From Armatimonadota bacterium (GTDB taxonomy: Bacteria > Armatimonadota > UBA10988), in the NCBI GenBank assembly GCA_016235455.1, contig JACRKZ010000076.1, positions 1-11,273 on the forward strand: 11,273 nt of DNA. The letters are read 5' to 3'. The translations under genes were made by a program, and so were the position numbers. Positions 1-10,793 of the stretch are shown piece after piece. The first letter of the stretch is position 1. Each line of letters opens with the position of its first letter. The notes beneath the pieces were generated by a model. The model was not told the DNA's origin. It worked only from the letters and a program-made list of their open reading frames with translations, and did no database searches.

Positions 1-58
1 CACTGGCCATCGCGGTCGCCAGCAGAGCAAGGGTCAGCGCACGGAGTACAGCGTTCAT
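1..58 (-). CDS. Partial CDS (5' end only): putative secreted protein
   Basis: ATG at 58-56 overlaps the TGA of the upstream gene (ATGA coupling). It translates as MNAVLRALTLALLATAMAS..., resembling a Sec signal peptide (basic residue, hydrophobic core, AxA). Runs off the window and is not in the ORF track. Confidence 0.65.
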   Translation of the reverse strand, partial: MNAVLRALTLALLATAMAS

Positions 59-2475
59 ACAGGTTCGTCCCACATGTCTTCTGGTTTCTGCCAGTGCAAC
101 TCTTCTCCTCCATCACCGCGCATGGTCTCGGCGCTGACGGGGTCGTCGTCGAACTTGAGCTCGGACAGCTCGGCCAGCAGCTCCCCAGCATCGCGCGGCC
201 GCTGGTCGGGGTCCTTGTCCAGGAGGCGCAGCAGCAGGCGATCCACGAACGCTGGCAGGTTGGGGTTGAAGTGGCTGGGCACCGGCGTGGGATGGTGGCG
301 GATGGCCTCCATCAGCTCGCGCTGGCCGGTAGCGGCGAAGGGCTGATAGCCGGTCAGGAGTTCAAACAGAATGACACCCAGCGCGTAGACATCCGAACGC
401 AGGTCGGTCTGCCGCTCGATGACCTCGCGCGCCATGTATGGCAGCGTGCCGACCACGTCCGTCAGGCATTCGCGTCCGCGCACGCTGGCCGCATGCTCGA
501 AGTCGGTGACCCGCACATCGGGGCCGATGGAGCGCACCAGGATGTTGCTGGGCTTGAGGTTGCGATGGCAGACCCGGCGCTCATGCAGCGCCGCCACACC
601 CGCGCAGGCCTGGCGCACCACCTCCAGGCACCAGTTGGCCGGGTGCGGGTGCCGCTGCTCGGGCGTGCCCGCGGCGTCGCGCAGTGTGACCCATTCGTCC
701 CACTCGTTGACCACGTACCAGCCGCCCTCGGCGGAGCCGAAGTCGAGCAGGCGGGCCAGGTTGGGATGGTCGATGCCGAGCACATTCAGGCTGCCCAGGA
801 ACAGGCTGCGCCCGACGTCGCTGGCATCGGCGAAGGTCTTTACCAGCACATGCCGACCAGTCAGCGTGTCCGTAGCGCGGTGCACCTCCACCGAGTTGCC
901 GCGTTCCACCAGTTCACGACCCGCCCAGCGCGATGCGCCACCACCGGTCACCGTGACGGCGGCGGCGGTCGGCACGGGTGCCTCGCGCGGCGCTGGCGGC
1001 GCCGTCCAGCCATCGGCCAATCGAGGCGGCCCGTCGGCGGCGGTCACGGTCAGGCCGAGCACGCCGGCCGCGTCGACGTTCAGCGCCAGGGTCAGCGCAT
1101 CGCCGGCCTTGGCGCCCGGCGGCACGGGCACGCTCTGCCACAACTCGCGCGGCGCCGCGCCGGGCTGTTCGACCCAGAGCCGCAACTCGACCGTCTCCGG
1201 CAGCGGATCGACAAGCCGCAGATGCAGCGGACCACCTTGCGCGGTGGACAGCGTGGGCAACGGCGTCTCCACGCGTAGCCAGGCATGCCGCGCCAGCTCG
1301 AGGCGCGTCTCGGTGACCTGCACCTCGCGCCACGGCAACTCCAGTCGCACCGCGGGCGGCGCCACCGAGGCGGTGGCCACCGGCGGAGGAGGCGGCGGGG
1401 CGGCCAATGCGCCCACCTGCACGGGCGGACGCGATGCGTAGATCGCCGCGCCGAATGCCGTCTGCTCGGTGGGACTGGCCTGCAGCAGCGGCACCCGTGG
1501 GAAGGAGGTCTCGAAGTGTCGCTGGACGAACGGGATCTGACAACTCCCACCGACCAGCAGCAGGTCGGTGGGATGGCCCGCGCGGATCACCTCGCGCGCC
1601 GCCTCCATGGCCTCGGCCACGGAACTCTCGATCATCGACTCGAAGTCTTCGGTCAGCACGCCGACCTCGACGTCCACCGGATCACCACCGCCGGGCCGCT
1701 CCAGGTCGCGGAAGTCGATCATGCTCCAGGCCACGCGGCCGAGTTCGAGCTTGGCCGCCTCGGCGCGCTGGGGCAACTCGGCCATCAGCCACTTTTCGTG
1801 GCGCAGGTCGAAGCCGCTGTCCTGGCTGGCACGAGAGCACACGAAGTCGACGATGTGGTTGGTGAACGCATGCCCCGCGATGTGGTCGCGTTGGGACAGG
1901 GCGATGCGCTCCAGCCGGCCGCTCTCGGCGTTCACCAGGCTGACGTTGAACTGCTCGCCGCCCATGTCGAGCACCAGCACCCGGCGCGGCTCGGGGGTGG
2001 GTCGGGCGAAGCCACAGGCCAGCACCGCCGCCAAGGGGCTGTCGATGGGTGTCAGGTCCAGTCCGGCCTCGGCGCCGCAGGCCACCAACCGCTCGATCAC
2101 CGCGTCTGTCCAGCGCGGTGGCACGGCCACCGCGGCACTCTTGACCGGATGACCGAGGGCGGATTTGAGGCTGACGCGGCAGTGCTGCAGCAGGCCGCGC
2201 AGCAACTCGCTCGCGTGCACCGCGCCCGAGGGCAGGCTGACGTAGCTGTCGCGCGCGAACCGGTGCAGCAGGTCGCGTACCACCGCGTCGGGCTTGGTCG
2301 CGATGAGCCGGGCCGCGCTCTGACCGTAGACCAGCCCCCCGGCATCGGCGGCAGCCATGGTGGGGATGTGGCGGCAACCCTCGATGTCGCTGACCAGCTC
2401 CAGTGTGCCATTGGGCTGGCGCCAGGCCAGTCGCGTGAACGTGTGGCCCAGGTCCAGGCCCACCCACAGATCCAT
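55..2475 (-). CDS. Hsp70/DnaK-family protein fused to a C-terminal Hanks-type Ser/Thr (pseudo)kinase domain, 806 aa
   Basis: Hsp70 NBD motifs: GLDLGHT, IPT, AVAVPPRW, IDSPLAAVLACG, VLVLDMGG, AEAAKLEL, LLVGGSCQIPFVQ, AFGAAIYA. Then a Pro-rich linker and an SBD-beta-like segment (LTLALNVDAAGVLGLTV, cf. DnaK IEVTFDIDANGILxVS). Kinase motifs: VLVK, HPNL, HRNLKPSN, DFE, GTLPYMARE, DVYALGVILFELLTG, RP. GGGAG RBS upstream of the ATG. Confidence 0.9.
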   Translation of the reverse strand: MDLWVGLDLGHTFTRLAWRQPNGTLELVSDIEGCRHIPTMAAADAGGLVYGQSAARLIATKPDAVVRDLLHRFARDSYVSLPSGAVHASELLRGLLQHCRVSLKSALGHPVKSAAVAVPPRWTDAVIERLVACGAEAGLDLTPIDSPLAAVLACGFARPTPEPRRVLVLDMGGEQFNVSLVNAESGRLERIALSQRDHIAGHAFTNHIVDFVCSRASQDSGFDLRHEKWLMAELPQRAEAAKLELGRVAWSMIDFRDLERPGGGDPVDVEVGVLTEDFESMIESSVAEAMEAAREVIRAGHPTDLLLVGGSCQIPFVQRHFETSFPRVPLLQASPTEQTAFGAAIYASRPPVQVGALAAPPPPPPVATASVAPPAVRLELPWREVQVTETRLELARHAWLRVETPLPTLSTAQGGPLHLRLVDPLPETVELRLWVEQPGAAPRELWQSVPVPPGAKAGDALTLALNVDAAGVLGLTVTAADGPPRLADGWTAPPAPREAPVPTAAAVTVTGGGASRWAGRELVERGNSVEVHRATDTLTGRHVLVKTFADASDVGRSLFLGSLNVLGIDHPNLARLLDFGSAEGGWYVVNEWDEWVTLRDAAGTPEQRHPHPANWCLEVVRQACAGVAALHERRVCHRNLKPSNILVRSIGPDVRVTDFEHAASVRGRECLTDVVGTLPYMAREVIERQTDLRSDVYALGVILFELLTGYQPFAATGQRELMEAIRHHPTPVPSHFNPNLPAFVDRLLLRLLDKDPDQRPRDAGELLAELSELKFDDDPVSAETMRGDGGEELHWQKPEDMWDEPV

Positions 2476-2505
2476 GTGGTCGCACTCCCGTCGCTACATT
2501 GTCCG

Positions 2506-3534
2506 TTAGGATAACGGCACCTGCAACACCCACGGCCGATCCCGCAGTTCGAGCAGGTCGCCGAGTGGGTAACGGTCGGTGGGCGAGATGTACAGCACCT
2601 GTTCGGGTCGCAGCGACGCCGTCCATACAGCCAGATCGTCGGTCGCGCGATCATTGACCTGCACGGTAGCCAAGGCCGGCATGCTGCTCCACACCGACGC
2701 GTGCTGGGCGTGCGCGCCGCACAAGTGGATCATGCCGCCATGGCGATGCTGCCCGAGCAGTTCGGCATCCAGCGGCGCAATGAACTCAGCGTACGAACGC
2801 GGGGACACCAACTGCGTGGCGCAGCCATCAATGAAGCCGTGGCCGGCCGGCGCGTAGCGGCTGCAGAACACCGAACCGCGATGCACCGCCGGCGGGATCA
2901 CCGCGTCGAACCGCGCCATGCACTCGCCGATCACGTCGGTGATGACGCGCAGCGCGTGGCGCGCCGCGTCCGGGCAGGCCAGCAGCCCCCACAGCAGGCG
3001 CTCACCGAACAGGTTGATACCCACGTTGATCGGGCAGCTCAGGACGGGATTGCTGATCAGCAGCCGACCGTCGCCCGCCTGTACGGCCAACGCGGCCAGT
3101 CGCAGCGCCGCGTTCAGCAGCGGGCTGGCGTCGAGGTCCGGGCGGCACAGCTCACCCAGTTCGCAGGTCAACTCCGACGACCAAGCCTGGTTGTTGACAA
3201 AGCGCACCTCGGCGCCAAACAACGCGTCGACGAAATGCGTGCCCAACGGGTCGATCTCAATGCCCAGCGGCCGGAACGTAACGCGATCGGCACCCTCGCG
3301 CGCGTGCGCTGCCAGGTCGGCCAGCACGTCGTCCAGCCAGCGCTCCGGCTCGGTCAGCATGTCGATGGCGTTGGTGCCCCACAAGCCGTGGTTAGCGCCA
3401 TAGAAGCGGCCGGCAATGGCCACCGGGCCGCCCGTGTCGCGACCGGCGAAGAGATCGTCGACGCGTTGTCGATGCCAGGCCTGCGCGTCCTCGATCTCGG
3501 GAGTGAGCCATGTCAAGCAGGTGGGATTCGGCAC
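2506..3534 (-). CDS. Uroporphyrinogen decarboxylase (URO-D)/MtaA-CmuA superfamily protein, function unknown, ~342 aa
   Basis: C-terminal motifs DGCATQLVSPRSYAEFIAP and GGMIHLCG, plus CPINVGINLFGE..L...PD, are typical of URO-D-fold paralogues. Start reassigned from 3843 to GTG 3534, which has an AGGAAG RBS and avoids overlap with the divergent GH32 gene. Confidence 0.72.
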   Translation of the reverse strand: MPNPTCLTWLTPEIEDAQAWHRQRVDDLFAGRDTGGPVAIAGRFYGANHGLWGTNAIDMLTEPERWLDDVLADLAAHAREGADRVTFRPLGIEIDPLGTHFVDALFGAEVRFVNNQAWSSELTCELGELCRPDLDASPLLNAALRLAALAVQAGDGRLLISNPVLSCPINVGINLFGERLLWGLLACPDAARHALRVITDVIGECMARFDAVIPPAVHRGSVFCSRYAPAGHGFIDGCATQLVSPRSYAEFIAPLDAELLGQHRHGGMIHLCGAHAQHASVWSSMPALATVQVNDRATDDLAVWTASLRPEQVLYISPTDRYPLGDLLELRDRPWVLQVPLS

Positions 3535-3542
3535 GATTGGCT

Positions 3543-3562
3543 TCCTGCCGGGCAGGATAGCA
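3543..3562 (-). promoter_or_regulatory. Candidate extended -10 promoter (TGcTATCCT) for the URO-D/Hsp70-kinase unit, overlapped by a perfect palindrome TCCTGCC-G-GGCAGGA
   Basis: The minus strand reads TGCTATCCT at 3562-3554, about 20 nt upstream of GTG 3534. A 7-1-7 inverted repeat at 3543-3557 covers part of the -10, the predicted TSS and part of the RBS. Confidence 0.45.
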
Positions 3563-3616
3563 GATGCCCTGGCGAATTGGGGCGCGGGCCAGAGGATGCC
3601 GTGGGCGGAGATCACC

Positions 3617-5800
3617 ATGAGACGAGTTGCGATTTTGGCGCTGCTGGCCGCGGGGTGTGTGATGGCGGATGAGACGACGTTCACCGACAAGACGCTGGTG
3701 GTCTGGGCCACCGTGGCCAACCTGACCCAGCGCGGCGGCAGCGTGCTGTCGCTGGAGAACCCCGCCGGCGTGTTCGACGGCCTCGTGCTGGGCGAGATCG
3801 AGCCCGGCCGTTGGATGCCCGGCAGCAATGGCTTCGTCCGCACACCGCGCGACCAGTCGGCCTGGCCGGTGGAGACCGCGGGACCGGCCGAACTGCACCA
3901 GTTGGCGCTGGTCTACCGCGGTCGGCAGGTGACCTGCCTGCGCGACGGACAGACACTGTGGACGACGCACCTGGCCGAAGACCCGCCGGCCTACGGGCCG
4001 CAGACGCTGGTGCTGCTCGGCTTGCGCCATCGTAGCGCCAACGGCGTCCGCTACTTCACCGGCAGCATCGCCGACGCGCGGGTCTATGCCGAGGCGCTGA
4101 CGCCCGAGAGCCTGGCCGCGCTACGACCCGGCCAGGCCGGCGCGACCAAGGCCTGGGCGTGGTGGTCGTTCGCCGACGGCCGGACCGAGGAGCGCACCGG
4201 CCGCTTCGCCAAGTCGAAGCTGATGGGCGACGCCAAGGTCGAGGGCGGCCGGCTGCTGCTCGGCGGCGAGGGCCATCTGCTGGCCGCCTCGCCCGAGCCG
4301 ACCGTGGCGGCCGACCGTGGCGGCGAGAGCTGGCCTATCTACCACCTCACGGCCCAGCGCGACGAGGGCCAGGCCATCCCCTTCGACCCCAACGGCGCGC
4401 TCTGGTGGAAGGGCCGCTACCACCTCATGTACATCTTCCAGGACCCCAACCTGCCCGCCGGCGGACACTGCTGGGGGCACTGGTCGAGTGCCGACCTGAT
4501 CAACTGGACGCTGCATCCGGCGGCCATCGTGCCGGGGCCGACCACGCCCGACAAGGGCATCTTCAGCGGCAACGCGCTGGTGGCCAAGGACGGGCGGCCC
4601 ATGATCTGCTGGTTCGGCATCGACGCCGGCGTGTGCGTGGCGTCGGCGGCCGATGACGATCTGATCAAGTGGGACCACCACCCCGGCAACCCCATCGTGC
4701 CCATGCCGCGCGAGGGTCAGCCGGGCCACGGCGTGTACCGCGTCTGGGACCCGTACCTGTGGCTGGAGGACGGCACCTACTACTGCCTGCTGGGCGGCAA
4801 TGAAGTCAAGGGCAAAGACACGCTCTACCTGATGAAGTCGCCCGACCTGAAGACCTGGACGCCGGTCGGCCCGTTCTACGAGCATCCCGACGCCTACTGG
4901 ACCGGCGACGGCGAGGACTGCTCCTGCCCCGACTTCTTCCAACTCGGCGACAAGCATGTCCTGCTGTGCATCAGCCACAAGGTCGGCGCGCGCTGCTATA
5001 TTGGCCGGTTCGACAAAGCCCACGACCGCTTCATCCCCGAGCGGCACCAACGCATGAACTGGCCGGGCGGCGCGTTCTTCGCGCCAGAGAGCCTGCTCGA
5101 CGGCAACGGTCGGCGCGTGTTCTGGGCCTGGGTGACCGACTGCCGCATCGGCCCGACGCGAGCGCGCACGGGCTCCGGCGTGCAGAGCCTGCCGCGCGTG
5201 ATGGCCATGAACCCCGACGGCAGCCTCAAGCTCACGCCGGCGGTGGAGTTGGAGAAGCTGCGGCGCGACCCGGTCAAAGTCGGCCCGCTGGAGCTGCCCG
5301 CCGACCAGCCGGTGCTACTGGACGCGGTTCGCGGCGAGCACTACGAACTGGCCGCGACCTTCGAGCCTGGCGGGGCCCGGCGCCTCGGCCTGCGGCTGCG
5401 CAGCGATGCCGAGGGCAAGCAGGAAACGGCGGTCTGGTATGAGCCCGACCCCGGCCGGCTGATCCTCGACATGTCTCGCTCGACAACGCGCACCGACGTC
5501 TGCTACCCCGAAGGCCCCATCGGCTTCGTGGGCATGAACGCGGTGGCCGACATCAAGAATCCGCGGCAGCGCGTCGAAGCGCCGTTTGCTCTGGCGCCGG
5601 GCGAGGCGCTACACCTGCGCGTGTTCGTCGACGGCCCGGTGATAGAGGTCTTCGCCAACGACCGCCAGGTGCTCACGCAGCAGGTCTTCCCGGCCGGTGA
5701 GGCGCCGCTGGTCCGGGCCGTGGCCGAAGGCGGCGCGGCGCGACTGGTGGCGCTGGAGGCCTGGCGCATGGCACCCTTGGTGGTGGAGGACAAACGATGA
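3617..5800 (+). CDS. Exported GH32-like (clan GH-J five-bladed beta-propeller + beta-sandwich) glycoside hydrolase with N-terminal LamG/ConA-like domain, ~727 aa
   Basis: GGAG RBS, then ATG 3617 and signal peptide MRRVAILALLAAGCVMA (possible lipobox AAGC). LamG-like motifs HQLALVY...G and FTGSIADARVYAEALT. GH32 motifs FDPNG, WGHWSSADLINW, FSG, WDP, SCPDFF, FFAPES, SLPR and C-terminal LRVFVDGPVIEVFAN. Confidence 0.88.
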   Translation: MRRVAILALLAAGCVMADETTFTDKTLVVWATVANLTQRGGSVLSLENPAGVFDGLVLGEIEPGRWMPGSNGFVRTPRDQSAWPVETAGPAELHQLALVYRGRQVTCLRDGQTLWTTHLAEDPPAYGPQTLVLLGLRHRSANGVRYFTGSIADARVYAEALTPESLAALRPGQAGATKAWAWWSFADGRTEERTGRFAKSKLMGDAKVEGGRLLLGGEGHLLAASPEPTVAADRGGESWPIYHLTAQRDEGQAIPFDPNGALWWKGRYHLMYIFQDPNLPAGGHCWGHWSSADLINWTLHPAAIVPGPTTPDKGIFSGNALVAKDGRPMICWFGIDAGVCVASAADDDLIKWDHHPGNPIVPMPREGQPGHGVYRVWDPYLWLEDGTYYCLLGGNEVKGKDTLYLMKSPDLKTWTPVGPFYEHPDAYWTGDGEDCSCPDFFQLGDKHVLLCISHKVGARCYIGRFDKAHDRFIPERHQRMNWPGGAFFAPESLLDGNGRRVFWAWVTDCRIGPTRARTGSGVQSLPRVMAMNPDGSLKLTPAVELEKLRRDPVKVGPLELPADQPVLLDAVRGEHYELAATFEPGGARRLGLRLRSDAEGKQETAVWYEPDPGRLILDMSRSTTRTDVCYPEGPIGFVGMNAVADIKNPRQRVEAPFALAPGEALHLRVFVDGPVIEVFANDRQVLTQQVFPAGEAPLVRAVAEGGAARLVALEAWRMAPLVVEDKR

Positions 5801-6153
5801 GTCAAGTAACCTATGCCGGTCGCCGAGGCGCCCGGATCCCGCATGGCGGGCTGACCGGCGTGGCACTGGCGCAGTCGCTGCACGACACCGTGGAGGCGCG
5901 CGCGGACATGTTCATCGCCGTGGCCACGGCTTTCGGCACCGGCCTGTTGGCCACGGTGGGCTGGTTCGTGGCCGAAGTCTTCTACCACCACCCGCTCGTC
6001 GGCGCGCTGATCGGCGCGGTCCACGGCGGCGCGCTGTGGTGGCTCCTGTCCAGTATGGCCGTGACGGGGTTGCGGATGCTCGCGCAGATCATGCTGGCGC
6101 AGGCGCGGTTGGTGGAGGCGGCGCCGGCTGGCGAGGCTGAGGCCGCTGACTGA
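5797..6153 (+). CDS. Small hypothetical membrane protein (about 2 TM helices), 118 aa
   Basis: ATGA overlap with the GH32 stop and GGAGG RBS. Hydrophobic Gly-rich segments FIAVATAFGTGLLATVGWFVA and LVGALIGAVHGGALWWLLSS. GC-ending codon bias in this frame. Confidence 0.72.
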   Translation: MSQVTYAGRRGARIPHGGLTGVALAQSLHDTVEARADMFIAVATAFGTGLLATVGWFVAEVFYHHPLVGALIGAVHGGALWWLLSSMAVTGLRMLAQIMLAQARLVEAAPAGEAEAAD

Positions 6154-6158
6154 GCGCA

Positions 6159-6266
6159 GCCTAACGGGTCGGCGTCTGCCGCCGGTCGGCGCGGACTGGT
6201 TACGCCGCGCTCCAGCGCGGCACCAAGGCTGACCCCGGTCGCAGGCGGTCCGCGTCATCGTTGGGT
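6159..6266 (-). mobile_element. Candidate degenerate attC-like integron cassette recombination site (alternatively a structured repeat or terminator)
   Basis: The minus strand begins ACCCAAC (RYYYAAC, 6266-6260) and ends GTTAGGC (GTTRRRY, 6165-6159), 108 bp in total, as an imperfect palindrome with apical stem GCCGCGC-TCCA-GCGCGGC (6204-6221). It starts 25 nt after the nuclease stop codon. The L boxes pair poorly. Confidence 0.38.
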
Positions 6267-6291
6267 GGTGACGCGAGCGCCCGCCAGCAGA

Positions 6292-7239
6292 CTACGGGGT
6301 CCAGCGCACCGTGTCCGGGTCAACGCCACACACCTTGAGAAGGTGGAGGGCGTTGGTGACGCAGCTACCCGCGGAGTAGTTGCTCTCGAGCAAGATGCCT
6401 CCACCGAGTTGGTGGGCGTTCTTGAACGACGCGCCGTCCTTGTGCACAGGACTGGTGTTCACGATGAAGCGCTTCTTGCCGCCGGCGTCGGGCACAGGGC
6501 ACTGCTCGGCACTCAGGCGAGCGCTCGCAACAAGCCAGAGTCCGACAGACTTCAGCACAGAGGCCCATGAGCTGACCTGAACCTGATCACCATTCGGGAA
6601 CTGGATCGAGGCGGGCACCTTGCTCCCGCTCACGACGAGATCCGCGAGCAGGGACAGGCCGTCCACACGATGTGGAAGCGACTTTGTCGGTTGAGTCTCT
6701 GCCGCGGGCAGCGGCGTAGTCGCCTTCGGAACAGCCAATGCATTGATGTGTCCAGCCACCAGGCCAAACAGTGATACCAACTGGTTCAGTGCCGCCAGCG
6801 CCGTGCCGGCGGAGATGGCAAACTGGAGCACGATCCGGTCCTGCAAGGGCACCATGATGTTGTGCGCATCCACAAGCTGCCACTGGTCGCCATTCGTCAG
6901 GATGCCCCAACGTACCGGCTTGGGCTGGCAGTTCACGCAGTAGTTGCTGAGCTGTTCAAGTTCCTTGAGCGCCAGATTGGCGCCCAGCGACTTTGCTTCG
7001 ATCAGGGTCGCCGGTGCCCCTGCTGCCATGAGCGCGTAGTCCACGAAGTTCACGCTGGCGGCGCCGGCGCGGTACTCCGCCAGCACGCTGTGCGCGTCAT
7101 GCACGTCCCAGCCGAGCAGCTTCAGGACCGGGTCGATGAGCGCGTACCGCGTCGCGGATTCTGTCTTGGACAAGTAGCCGTGGTGCTGCTTCATCACCTC
7201 ACGCAAGCGTTCGACCTCGTCGAGCAGTGGCTTGATCAC
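6292..7239 (-). CDS. Standalone HsdR_N-like PD-(D/E)xK restriction endonuclease with a C-terminal putative DNA-binding domain, 315 aa
   Basis: Motifs ESATRYALIDPVLKLLGWD, EY, VDYAL (D67), IEAK (E81/K83), EQLSNY (QxxxY) and GILTNGDQW match the type I restriction enzyme R N-terminal domain. A Pro/Thr linker is followed by a ~120-aa domain. GAGAGGGG RBS before the GTG. No helicase domain and no adjacent hsdM/hsdS. Confidence 0.82.
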   Translation of the reverse strand: MIKPLLDEVERLREVMKQHHGYLSKTESATRYALIDPVLKLLGWDVHDAHSVLAEYRAGAASVNFVDYALMAAGAPATLIEAKSLGANLALKELEQLSNYCVNCQPKPVRWGILTNGDQWQLVDAHNIMVPLQDRIVLQFAISAGTALAALNQLVSLFGLVAGHINALAVPKATTPLPAAETQPTKSLPHRVDGLSLLADLVVSGSKVPASIQFPNGDQVQVSSWASVLKSVGLWLVASARLSAEQCPVPDAGGKKRFIVNTSPVHKDGASFKNAHQLGGGILLESNYSAGSCVTNALHLLKVCGVDPDTVRWTP

Positions 7240-7301
7240 CGTTGAGCACCCCTCTCGTCCTGGGCATTCGCCGCCGTCGCCCAGCCCCCTCCGCGCGGCC
7301 C

Positions 7302-7348
7302 AAATCCGAAGGCCGCGAACGGGTCCGACGAACCCGTTCGCGGCCCTC
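7302..7348 (-). terminator. Intrinsic terminator of the sdhCAB operon
   Basis: Perfect 14-bp stem GGCCGCGAACGGGT/ACCCGTTCGCGGCC (7311-7324 / 7332-7345) with a 7-nt loop, 22 nt after the sdhB stop. It is followed on the minus strand by an imperfect U-tract TTCGGATTT. Confidence 0.7.
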
Positions 7349-7367
7349 TGCTACGTTGGCTAGACGC

Positions 7368-8125
7368 CTACTCCTGCGCCACCGGCGCCCGCAGCGCCGA
7401 GGCCAGCATGTCGCGGTTCAGCTTGGCGATGAAGTCCAGGCTGATGCCCTTGGGGCAGACCGCCTCGCAGGCGCCGTGGTTGGTGCAGTTGCCAAACCCC
7501 TCGGCGTCGTGCTGCTCTAGCATGCGCTGCACCCGCTCATAGCGCTCGGGCTGGCCCTGGGGCAGCAGGCCGAGATGGCTCACCTTGGCCGACAGGAAGA
7601 GCATGGCCGAGGCGTTGGGGCAGGCCGCCACGCAGGCGCCGCAGCCGATGCACTGGGCCGCGTCCATGGCCCAATCGGCCGCGGGCTTGGGCACCAGGAT
7701 GGCGTTGGCCTCCGGCGCGGAGCCGGTGCGCGCGCTGATGTAGCCGCCGGCCTGGATGATGCGGTCGAACGCGCTGCGGTCAACGATCAGGTCACGGATG
7801 ACCGGGAAGGCCTTGGCGCGATACGGCTCGATCCACAGCTCCTCGCCATCGGAGAAATGGCGCATGTGGAGCTGGCAGGTGGCGGTCAGGCCGGTCTTGC
7901 CGTGCGGCCGGCCGTTGATGACCATGCCGCACGAGCCGCAAATGCCTTCGCGGCAGTCATGCTCGAAGGCGAACGGCTCCTTGCCCTCGGCGGTCAGGCG
8001 CTCGTTGACGACGTCGAGCATCTCCAGGAAGGACATGTGCTCGTTGACGTCGGGCGCCACGTACGTTTCGAACCGACCCGGCGCGGTGGGGCCGCTCTGG
8101 CGCCAGACATGCAGTGTCAGTTTCA

Positions 8126-8126
<1 letters not shown>
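7368..8126 (-). CDS. sdhB: Succinate dehydrogenase/fumarate reductase iron-sulfur subunit, 252 aa
   Basis: CREGICGSC...C ([2Fe-2S]), [12 protein letters not shown] and [12 protein letters not shown] ([4Fe-4S]/[3Fe-4S]), plus [10 protein letters not shown]. The true start is ATG 8126 ([10 protein letters not shown]), overlapping the sdhA stop as TGATG. Confidence 0.96.
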
Positions 8127-10039
<1,913 letters not shown>

Positions 10040-10057
10040 GTCGTGTCTCCTCGTGCT

Positions 10058-10744
10058 CTACAGGTGCAGCACACCGGCCTGGACGGCCAGCGGAATGCTT
10101 GCGTTGCCCACGAAAACGAGCAGACTGAAGGCCAGCGCCAACGGCCGCCGTAGCGCGTTGTAGCGCGGGCTGTTGAGGCCGAGGGTCTGGAAGGCGCTCC
10201 AGATGCCGTGATACAGGTGCAGGCACAGCGGCACCATGGCCAACAGGTAAAAGGCGGCCAGCCAGCTGTGCTGGAAACCGGCAATCACGTTGTTGTACGG
10301 GTCGCCCGCGACATACTCGCCGGGGCAGATCCAGCCCCAGGTGAGATGGGCCAGGTGGAACAGAATGAACGCGCCGAGGGTGACGCCCCCCAGGCGCATC
10401 ATCAAGCTGGTCCGCGACAGCACGAGACTATTGTCAACCTTGTTGTACCGGGTGGGCCGAGCGGCATCGCTCAGCAAGTAGAGTTGGACGGCCATGGTGA
10501 TGTGAAGCGCAGCACAAGCAATGATGCCCAGTCGCGCAACGCATAGTCCGGCCGTTGGAGGCAACAGGGGTTCGCCGATGTGGCGAAGCCATTCCGCATA
10601 GTGGTTGAAGACTTCTCGTCCCAGGAAGATCTTGAGGTTGCCGGCCATGTGACCCAGCACAAAGGCACAGAGGCCCGCGCCGGTCGCCGCCATGATGATC
10701 TTCTTGCCGACGGTCAGTCGCCAGAGACTGCTCAGGGCTCGCAT
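10058..10744 (-). CDS. sdhC: Succinate dehydrogenase/fumarate reductase cytochrome b subunit (single anchor, b558-type, diheme), ~228 aa
   Basis: TVGKKIIMAATG, GHMAGNL, LHI, FHLAHL and HLYHGIWSAFQTLG, with five hydrophobic segments. Start taken as ATG 10744 behind AAAGGA. First gene of the sdhCAB operon. Confidence 0.93.
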   Translation of the reverse strand: MRALSSLWRLTVGKKIIMAATGAGLCAFVLGHMAGNLKIFLGREVFNHYAEWLRHIGEPLLPPTAGLCVARLGIIACAALHITMAVQLYLLSDAARPTRYNKVDNSLVLSRTSLMMRLGGVTLGAFILFHLAHLTWGWICPGEYVAGDPYNNVIAGFQHSWLAAFYLLAMVPLCLHLYHGIWSAFQTLGLNSPRYNALRRPLALAFSLLVFVGNASIPLAVQAGVLHL

Positions 10745-10765
10745 CGTAGCGTCCTTTCGGCCCCA

Positions 10766-10793
10766 ACCGTACAACGAACCGGGTAGGCGTCAA
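10766..10793 (-). promoter_or_regulatory. Candidate sigma70 promoter of sdhCAB
   Basis: Minus strand TTGACG (10793-10788), 16-nt spacer, TACGGT (10771-10766; TAnnnT), ending about 21 nt upstream of the sdhC ATG. Confidence 0.45.

Follow-up and report, generated by a model that had tools for sequence, protein, structure and literature searches.

In bacterial DnaK and other Hsp70 chaperones, a nucleotide-binding domain (NBD) is followed, through a short, hydrophobic and conserved linker, by the beta sandwich of the substrate-binding domain (SBD-beta) and by a helical lid (SBD-alpha). Hydrolysis of ATP by DnaK is driven by the Lys of an I-K-R motif, the Glu of an N-E-P motif, and the Thr and Asp of D-L-G-G-G-T-F-D. 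Hanks-type Ser/Thr kinases carry their catalytic Asp in an H-R-D motif, and in some eukaryotic pseudokinases this Asp has become Asn (HRN). One of them, HER3, also lacks the Glu of helix alphaC and acts as an allosteric activator. Here we describe a gene that joins derivatives of both folds, each catalytically degenerate, in one soluble protein. It lies at positions 55–2475, on the reverse (-) strand, of an Armatimonadota contig of 11,273 nt (JACRKZ010000076.1; hereafter the window, i.e., the whole stretch of DNA that was analysed).

The change from HRD to HRN is seen in the pseudokinases HER3, JAK2 and PSKH2, and usually abolishes catalysis (PMC7586955). The fusion resembles HER3, JAK2 JH2 and PSKH2 in that the kinase fold is kept and HRD has changed to HRN (the catalytic loop is HRNLKPEN in PSKH2 and HRNLKPSN in the fusion; PMC7586955), but the eukaryotic proteins are unrelated to it in descent and domain context, and Hsp70 parts are fused only in the bacterial protein. 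Seven families of bacterial pseudokinases, ActPs1-3, GLW, CP1, DYD and DLHK, have been reviewed (PMC12599244). Like the fusion, they have a Hanks fold whose catalytic motifs are degraded. CP1, a cytosolic family with a fused ATPase domain, is linked to COG3899 and not to Hsp70 (PMC12599244). By term search, the review text mentions neither Hsp70, DnaK nor HRN, and by the review's descriptions the window family would be distinct from these seven.

Single chains with an Hsp70 NBD and a Hanks kinase have a precedent in the “Kinase + HSP70” protein listed in Pirellula, whose domain order is the reverse of that of the fusion (PMC1262709). Finally, Hsp70-like units that are predicted to bind ATP and barely hydrolyse it occur in conflict systems, namely CnuD of CoCoNuT systems (PMC10542128) and units of GTPase-centric systems (PMC7159879), sometimes together with TPR and vWA proteins.

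Domain architecture of the fusion

The open reading frame (ORF) list and its translation give a protein of 806 aa plus the stop codon, at positions 55–57. Six parts follow one another along the chain, all encoded on the reverse strand: the catalytically degenerate Hsp70 NBD (1420–2475, residues 1–352), a disordered Pro-rich linker (1306–1419, residues 353–390), a beta-sandwich domain that is probably a divergent Hsp70 SBD-beta (991–1305, residues 391–495), a Pro/Ala linker (940–990, residues 496–512), a Hanks-type kinase fold that is a pseudokinase (148–939, residues 513–776), and an acidic disordered tail (58–147, residues 777–806). The Pfam HSP70 profile (PF00012) matched residues 87–347 (E 1.1e-34, 120 bits for a cut-off of 20.6) over its positions 109–372 of 599, i.e., over the NBD only, and gave no match past it. 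The Pkinase profile (PF00069) matched residues 525–761 (E 1.4e-33). HMMER searches against the PDB aligned residues 4–347 to the NBD of Geobacillus DnaK (2v7y) and residues 516–781 to PknB of M. tuberculosis.

A full-length AlphaFold2 model built on a 17-sequence alignment had a mean predicted local distance difference test score (pLDDT) of 83.6 and a predicted template modelling score (pTM) of 0.49. It showed three folded blocks, at residues 1–357 (pLDDT around 90 over the NBD), 391–495 and 513–776 (85–97 in the last), separated and followed by disordered stretches with pLDDT below 50 at residues 358–390, 496–512 and 777–806. The best Foldseek matches were DnaK and BiP, so that PF00012, the DnaK alignment and the structural comparison all class this domain with the Hsp70 NBDs. 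From residue 495 up to the kinase fold, the model showed no helical segment that could represent a lid. Neither did the protein contain a transmembrane segment: the highest mean of a 19-residue Kyte-Doolittle window was 1.52, and this window lies in beta strands. The fusion is a single soluble cytoplasmic polypeptide with an Hsp70 NBD and without a lid, in whose position stands a kinase fold.

The initial annotation, made from the DNA letters and their translations, had described an NBD, a beta segment, a kinase fold and an acidic tail in this order. Pfam, the PDB searches and the model bear it out, with the borders of the three folded domains placed within around 40 nt of ours; it was also right that the protein lacks transmembrane segments and the window lacks dnaJ and grpE. 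Its proposal that the lid is replaced by a kinase fold stands as a statement on position; as one on function and packing it found no confident counterpart in the model (pTM 0.49).

Two side observations concern the tail. A W-x-K-P-x-D-x-W motif is common to both Armatimonadota proteins of the family (the window protein and its closest homologue, P0004). In five of 18 members (P0005, P0006, P0124, P0125, P0126), a hydrophobic-x-T-I-T-S/A motif stands 10–15 residues past the kinase fold. Such motifs could act as docking or pseudo-substrate peptides.

The kinase fold is a pseudokinase

We tabulated the catalytic motifs in the 17-sequence family alignment (A2). The catalytic loop (544–567, residues 637–644) reads HRNLKPSN in the window protein, with Asn639 where the catalytic Asp is expected. 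This Asn replaces the Asp in 17 of 17 members, and H637, R638, N639, K641, P642 and N644 are invariant, giving a family loop H-R-N-x-K-P-x-N. The alphaC Glu is kept in none of the 17 (its place is taken by G, N, S, R or A) and neither is the Gly of DFG, which reads DFE in the window protein. The DFG Asp persists in 12 members, whereas the beta3 Lys, present in the window protein, persists in six and is Arg in four. The Gly-rich loop is degenerate, with ERGNSVEV in the window protein at the place of G-F-G-G-M-S-E-V in PknB. The G-T-x-x-Y...E activation segment, on the other hand, is invariant or nearly so, among sequences that are only 25–47% identical to the query. Conservation of this loop and segment at such divergence speaks against decay and for selection, on a function that is atypical or does not involve catalysis.

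Among 272 stored proteins compared by blastp, the kinase-like domain of every family member carried HRN. These domains scored 165–296 bits, except for those of a divergent subgroup (P0137 and P0158), also with HRN, which scored 117–119. The best kinases with HRD reached at most 130 bits, so that nearly all members scored higher than any of them and the two divergent ones just below. Since HRN is found in every member and the scores group the family, the Asn arose once and was then kept.

Compared with an active Hanks kinase, the domain thus has the bilobal Pkinase fold and lacks the HRD Asp, the Lys-Glu pair, an intact Gly-rich loop and a complete DFG. A kinase fold from which a catalytic residue is missing, and consistently so across a family, is a pseudokinase, and judged by its motifs this one is. 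An output as a full kinase, to which the initial annotation pointed, is not supported.

The NBD lacks the residues of ATP hydrolysis

Alignment with DnaK places L69 at the Lys of I-K-R and S146 at the Glu of N-E-P, and D-L-G-G-G-T-F-D reads D-M-G-G-E-Q-F-N. The Lys is found in none of the 13 family sequences that cover its column, all of which have a hydrophobic residue or Pro there. None of 14 members has the Glu, and two carry a Glu one position earlier. By its hydrolysis residues, the NBD does not class with that of a working Hsp70/DnaK. The motifs for phosphate 1, phosphate 2 and adenosine can nevertheless be recognised in the fusion, as in DnaK; across the family, most members preserve phosphate loop 1, the Asp of loop 2 and the adenosine motif (G-G/A-S-x-x-x-P). 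From the lost residues and the kept motifs, we infer an NBD that would bind nucleotide with little or no turnover. With the Lys and Glu of DnaK missing from one module and the catalytic residues from the other, it is unlikely that the protein couples the hydrolysis of ATP to phosphorylation.

The fusion shares with bacterial DnaK and other Hsp70s (2v7y; BiP, 6asy) the NBD fold and the order of NBD and beta sandwich, but lacks the helical lid, the hydrophobic linker and the catalytic Lys and Glu, has a barely recognisable SBD-beta, and has no dnaJ or grpE nearby. The short, conserved interdomain linker of Hsp70s is replaced by the disordered Pro-rich stretch, of 38 residues in the window protein and of around 30 to around 300 among homologues. 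The whole protein also scored below the NCBIfam cut-offs for DnaK-like models, with 121.9 bits against 822.55 (TIGR02350) and 69 against 708.55 (HscA).

The closest relatives of the family NBD are NBD-only proteins with other C-termini (P0007, P0142 and P0146), whose NBDs are of the same degenerate type and 52–56% identical to that of P0005. None of the three has the pseudokinase; in its place, P0007 carries a stretch of hydrophobic residues and P0142 a zinc ribbon (UPF0547), both with NBDs 53–56% identical to that of P0005. A degenerate NBD shared by proteins that differ in their C-termini suggests that C-terminal modules were swapped on it.

The beta domain

The beta domain, called SBD-beta-like from the start, is probably a divergent remnant of SBD-beta. 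This points to Hsp70 by position, directly after the NBD, and by a set of structural scores that are individually weak. Modelled separately (residues 372–500), it had a pLDDT of 88. Foldseek found no match for the isolated domain in the PDB at E 0.001 or better (all E above 0.1). VIA-align, run against 48,161 representative chains, ranked first the Hsp110 Sse1 (residues 385–549, Z 5.8, root-mean-square deviation (rmsd) 6.7, 105 residues aligned), third BiP (418–528, Z 5.3), and 15th and 29th the SBDs of human Hsp70 and mortalin; all scores for this domain are below the tool's caution line of Z 8. Re-scoring of the top 1000 Foldseek matches raised BiP (420–527) to Z 7.2, with an rmsd of 3.8 over 87 residues. 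The top 50 entries of the re-scored list comprised 40 Hsp70-family chains matched over the SBD-beta range, a count inflated by the many redundant Hsp70 entries in the PDB, eight of CARM1 and two of ciliary complexes. The full-length model aligned over 517–560 columns with full DnaK or BiP chains, against around 380 with NBD-only chains. With hhalign, residues 449–482 of the family beta alignment paired with the last two SBD-beta strands of five canonical Hsp70s (P 0.0072, probability 5%). The best structural matches thus fit the original call, at scores (Z 5–7) that keep it a probable one.

In P0004, the closest homologue of the fusion (47% identity), the N-terminal half of this domain is missing, so that the sister lineage either can do without the domain or is losing it. 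P0004 is identical to the fusion gene of a genome of the same genus (G056), where it lies at 13083–15305 (-) of its locus.

Authenticity and distribution of the family

The gene has an intact frame. It is stop-free over its 806 aa, within an enclosing open frame of 812 aa, and the N-terminus of the protein lines up with those of its homologues. A Shine-Dalgarno-like GGGAG (2485–2489, reverse strand), read from the sequence, stands 9 nt ahead of the ATG (2473–2475). Positions 1–3800 contain no consensus of a sigma-70-like promoter or of a terminator. The gene is present in a single copy in the source genome (6.5 Mb, 185 contigs, 93% complete), of which the window is one entire contig (in our records this genome is G000 and the fusion protein P0001).

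The junctions between domains, where a chimeric assembly had been feared, are spanned by independent contigs. A Logan contig of run X1 covers 667–2928 with one difference and bridges both junctions, as does one of run X2, which covers 667–2469 with two differences. The beta/kinase junction is also bridged by a contig of X4 (763–1289, three differences), from a different study. Run X1 may be the source sample of the window. The contigs of X1 and X2 reach 1,093 nt past the first base of the window. In each of runs X1–X3, two alternative unitigs were found at 367–514 and at 568–696 (zero versus 4–8 differences), which points to co-existing strains.

The same architecture is found in around 15 homologue clusters from independent assemblies. 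Full-length relatives include P0004 (740 aa), P0005 (1075 aa), P0006 (901 aa), and a 972-aa gene in a metagenome-assembled genome of Blastocatellia (locus L009). From 1.84 billion representatives, a profile search added P0124–P0130, P0135, P0137, P0143 and P0158, with Pfam matches to HSP70 (NBD only) and Pkinase, whereas the shorter P0140 and P0152 consist of the beta domain and the kinase fold alone. Full-length homologues do exist.

Members of the family are rare, with a patchy spread over phyla. Among 401 sampled genomes of Armatimonadota, including the source genome, only the latter and G056 encoded the fusion at E 1e-40 or better, in a search that used a stricter first look. Among 201 genomes of the class of the L009 genome, scored with four candidates per genome, a single one did (G401) at E 1e-60 or better. 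In a scan of one genome per species, L009 was the sole full-length fusion among the 80 loci kept. A metagenome scan by a generic activation-loop pattern returned kinase-only loci, with no fusion among the 80 matches listed.

Other Hsp70-kinase fusions are of another type. The top 150 representatives included at least ten proteins with an N-terminal Hsp70 and a C-terminal kinase, and several with the reverse order, all with canonical motifs. The clusters of the former type (at least ten; around 1000–1270 aa) comprise P0170, P0176, P0186, P0187, P0196, P0205, P0224, P0227, P0236 and P0249, with a canonical-motif Hsp70 and an HRD kinase. By their motifs, they are apparently a separate, active family. 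They carry G-I-D-L-G-T-T, D-[LF]-G-G-G-T-F and H-R-D, unlike the window family. In neither their kinase domains nor their NBDs do they approach the window family more closely than ordinary kinases and DnaKs do, and on these comparisons they are probably independent in origin.

We found no characterised family with the order Hsp70 NBD, beta domain and pseudokinase, and no description of a doubly degenerate Hsp70-pseudokinase family in the literature searched, which excluded subscription papers and supplements. The fusion gene thus belongs to a rare uncharacterised family of around 15 clusters that combines known kinds: lidless Hsp70 paralogues, bacterial pseudokinases and Hsp70-kinase fusions.

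Gene neighbourhood

The fusion lies at the left end of the contig. Its upstream neighbour, 31 nt away and in the same orientation, is a URO-D-like gene of 342 aa (2506–3534, -); a longer ORF of 445 aa (to 3843) probably does not have the true start. This gene belongs to a widespread, stand-alone family of hypothetical proteins of around 340 aa, in which PF01208 was matched by only three of the 120 matches listed. We considered it as a conserved partner of the fusion and rejected it, because it was not found in G056 (80% complete) or in G401 and because its family is widespread and stand-alone.

In divergent orientation to the URO-D-like gene follows a GH32 glycosidase gene (3416–5800, +). Its product carries a Laminin_G_3 (ConA-like) domain at the N-terminus, and a start that resembles a signal peptide lies around 67 codons into the ORF. 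Between it and sdhB are two ORFs, one of 251 aa without family match (5503–6258, -) and one of 315 aa (6292–7239, -) with a weak match to HSDR_N, a nuclease-like N-terminal domain of restriction enzymes. A succinate dehydrogenase/fumarate reductase operon (sdhCAB; 7368–10774, -) encodes the cytochrome b subunit, the flavoprotein and the Fe-S subunit. Downstream of the fusion of G056 are genes for a glucuronyl esterase, a Dps/ferritin, an Fe-ADH, BipA and other housekeeping functions; as in the window, there is no J-domain or GrpE gene near the fusion. In locus L009, the fusion is flanked by genes encoding an Hsp70NBD-TPR protein (708–2465), a TPR-BON protein (5704–6960) and an acidobacterial-type vWA protein (6967–8184). 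They may form a multi-component system that is absent from the window.

Function of the fusion

We tentatively favour, with a little less than even confidence, a role of the fusion in Hanks Ser/Thr-kinase signalling, where it would act in the cytoplasm as a scaffold or allosteric partner with little or no catalysis of its own. In such a “double pseudoenzyme”, the Hsp70-derived NBD and the SBD-beta-like domain would be tethered by flexible linkers to the pseudokinase. The latter would engage a separate active kinase or a phospho-dependent partner, as do HRN-type pseudokinases, e.g., HER3. The Hsp70-derived part would bind nucleotide, and perhaps extended peptide, and so serve as a sensor of ligands or clients or as an assembly module. 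Possible partners in the source genome are several separate Hanks kinases and two DnaK-like genes of canonical length. The reading builds on the architecture, the loss of catalytic residues from both modules, the conservation of the remodelled loop, and the lack of a lid, of transmembrane segments and of J-domain or GrpE neighbours; nucleotide binding without turnover, engagement of a partner kinase and peptide binding by the beta domain would be its conditional parts. Several points weigh against it. No partner and no conserved neighbour emerged from the three loci inspected (the window, G056 and L009), and the SBD-beta assignment is built on the low scores given above. The beta3 Lys, the DFG Asp and Asn644 of the catalytic loop are still present in the window protein, and with them it may bind ATP and Mg and have some activity. 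Residual catalysis is indeed described for two HRN-bearing proteins, HER3 and JAK2 JH2 (PMC7586955).

These last points are also the ground for an alternative that we consider unlikely, i.e., an atypical low-activity kinase, or another ATP-using transferase, in which Asn639 and its neighbours would act by a non-canonical mechanism under the control of the Hsp70-like module. An invariant catalytic loop is what one expects of a working active site. Yet of the 17 aligned members, 11 have lost the beta3 Lys, five the DFG Asp and all of them the alphaC Glu; the Gly-rich loop is degenerate as well. With such scattered losses, a catalytic activity shared by the family is hard to sustain.

Two further roles appear rather unlikely, to the same degree. 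In one, the fusion would be a ligand-gated allosteric activator: the NBD, binding ATP without hydrolysing it, and the SBD-beta remnant would sense a peptide, an unfolded segment or, as a pseudo-substrate, the C-terminal tail of the protein itself, and would control a HER3-like HRN pseudokinase that pairs with a free-standing Hanks kinase and switches it on. If true, this would be a new link from proteostasis-type sensing to bacterial Ser/Thr phosphorylation, made from dead enzymes only. In the other, it would be a specialised holdase or chaperone, whose NBD and SBD-beta bind a dedicated client while the kinase fold closes over the peptide cleft as a substitute for the lid. The kinase fold sits where such a lid would, after the SBD-beta-like domain, and the hydrophobic T-I-T-S/A motif in the tails of five of 18 members could serve as a pseudo-substrate. 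Against this, the conserved interdomain linker has given way to a disordered one of variable length, the NBD lacks the hydrolysis residues, no interdomain packing was predicted with confidence, the closest homologue lacks half of the beta domain, and there is no J-domain or GrpE gene nearby.

It is improbable that the fusion serves a conflict system, anti-phage or other, as its sensor or scaffold. The initial annotation had entertained a defence module, and the rare, patchy distribution of the family fits one. Degenerate Hsp70 NBDs and TPR and vWA proteins are found in such systems (PMC7159879, PMC10542128), and the neighbours of the L009 fusion recall this company. The passages of these two papers on Hsp70-like units make no mention of a pseudokinase fusion, however, and the three loci inspected contain no McrB/McrC, GTPase, HEPN, nuclease or other effector gene. 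The kinase domain matched PADLOC and NCBIfam models of PD-T4-6, MADS6 and PglW, but only over the generic kinase domain and far below the cut-offs (113 bits against 460 for MADS6, 56 against 990 for PglW). Lacking the catalytic Asp, and with housekeeping neighbours in the window (URO-D-like, GH32, sdhCAB) and in G056 (Dps, BipA), the fusion does not class with the defence kinases (PD-T4-6/Stk2-like, MADS6, BREX PglW). An assembly chimera or a decaying pseudogene, which the short contig (11.3 kb), the end of the gene 54 nt from the contig end and the strain-level bubbles might suggest, is effectively refuted by the contigs that span the junctions in two samples and, for one junction, in a second study, by the intact frame, and by the independent homologue clusters with the same architecture and invariant motifs.

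Significance

The fusion of two folds, both catalytically degenerate, has been conserved, which would imply that these folds are reused for binding or allostery. Relatives of the fusion are named “Hsp70 family protein” or “serine/threonine kinase” in their sources, and the losses in both modules are a warning against such annotations. Little is understood of either bacterial pseudokinases or truncated Hsp70 paralogues, and the soluble 806-aa protein offers a compact model for the cooperation of a dead kinase with a dead chaperone ATPase.

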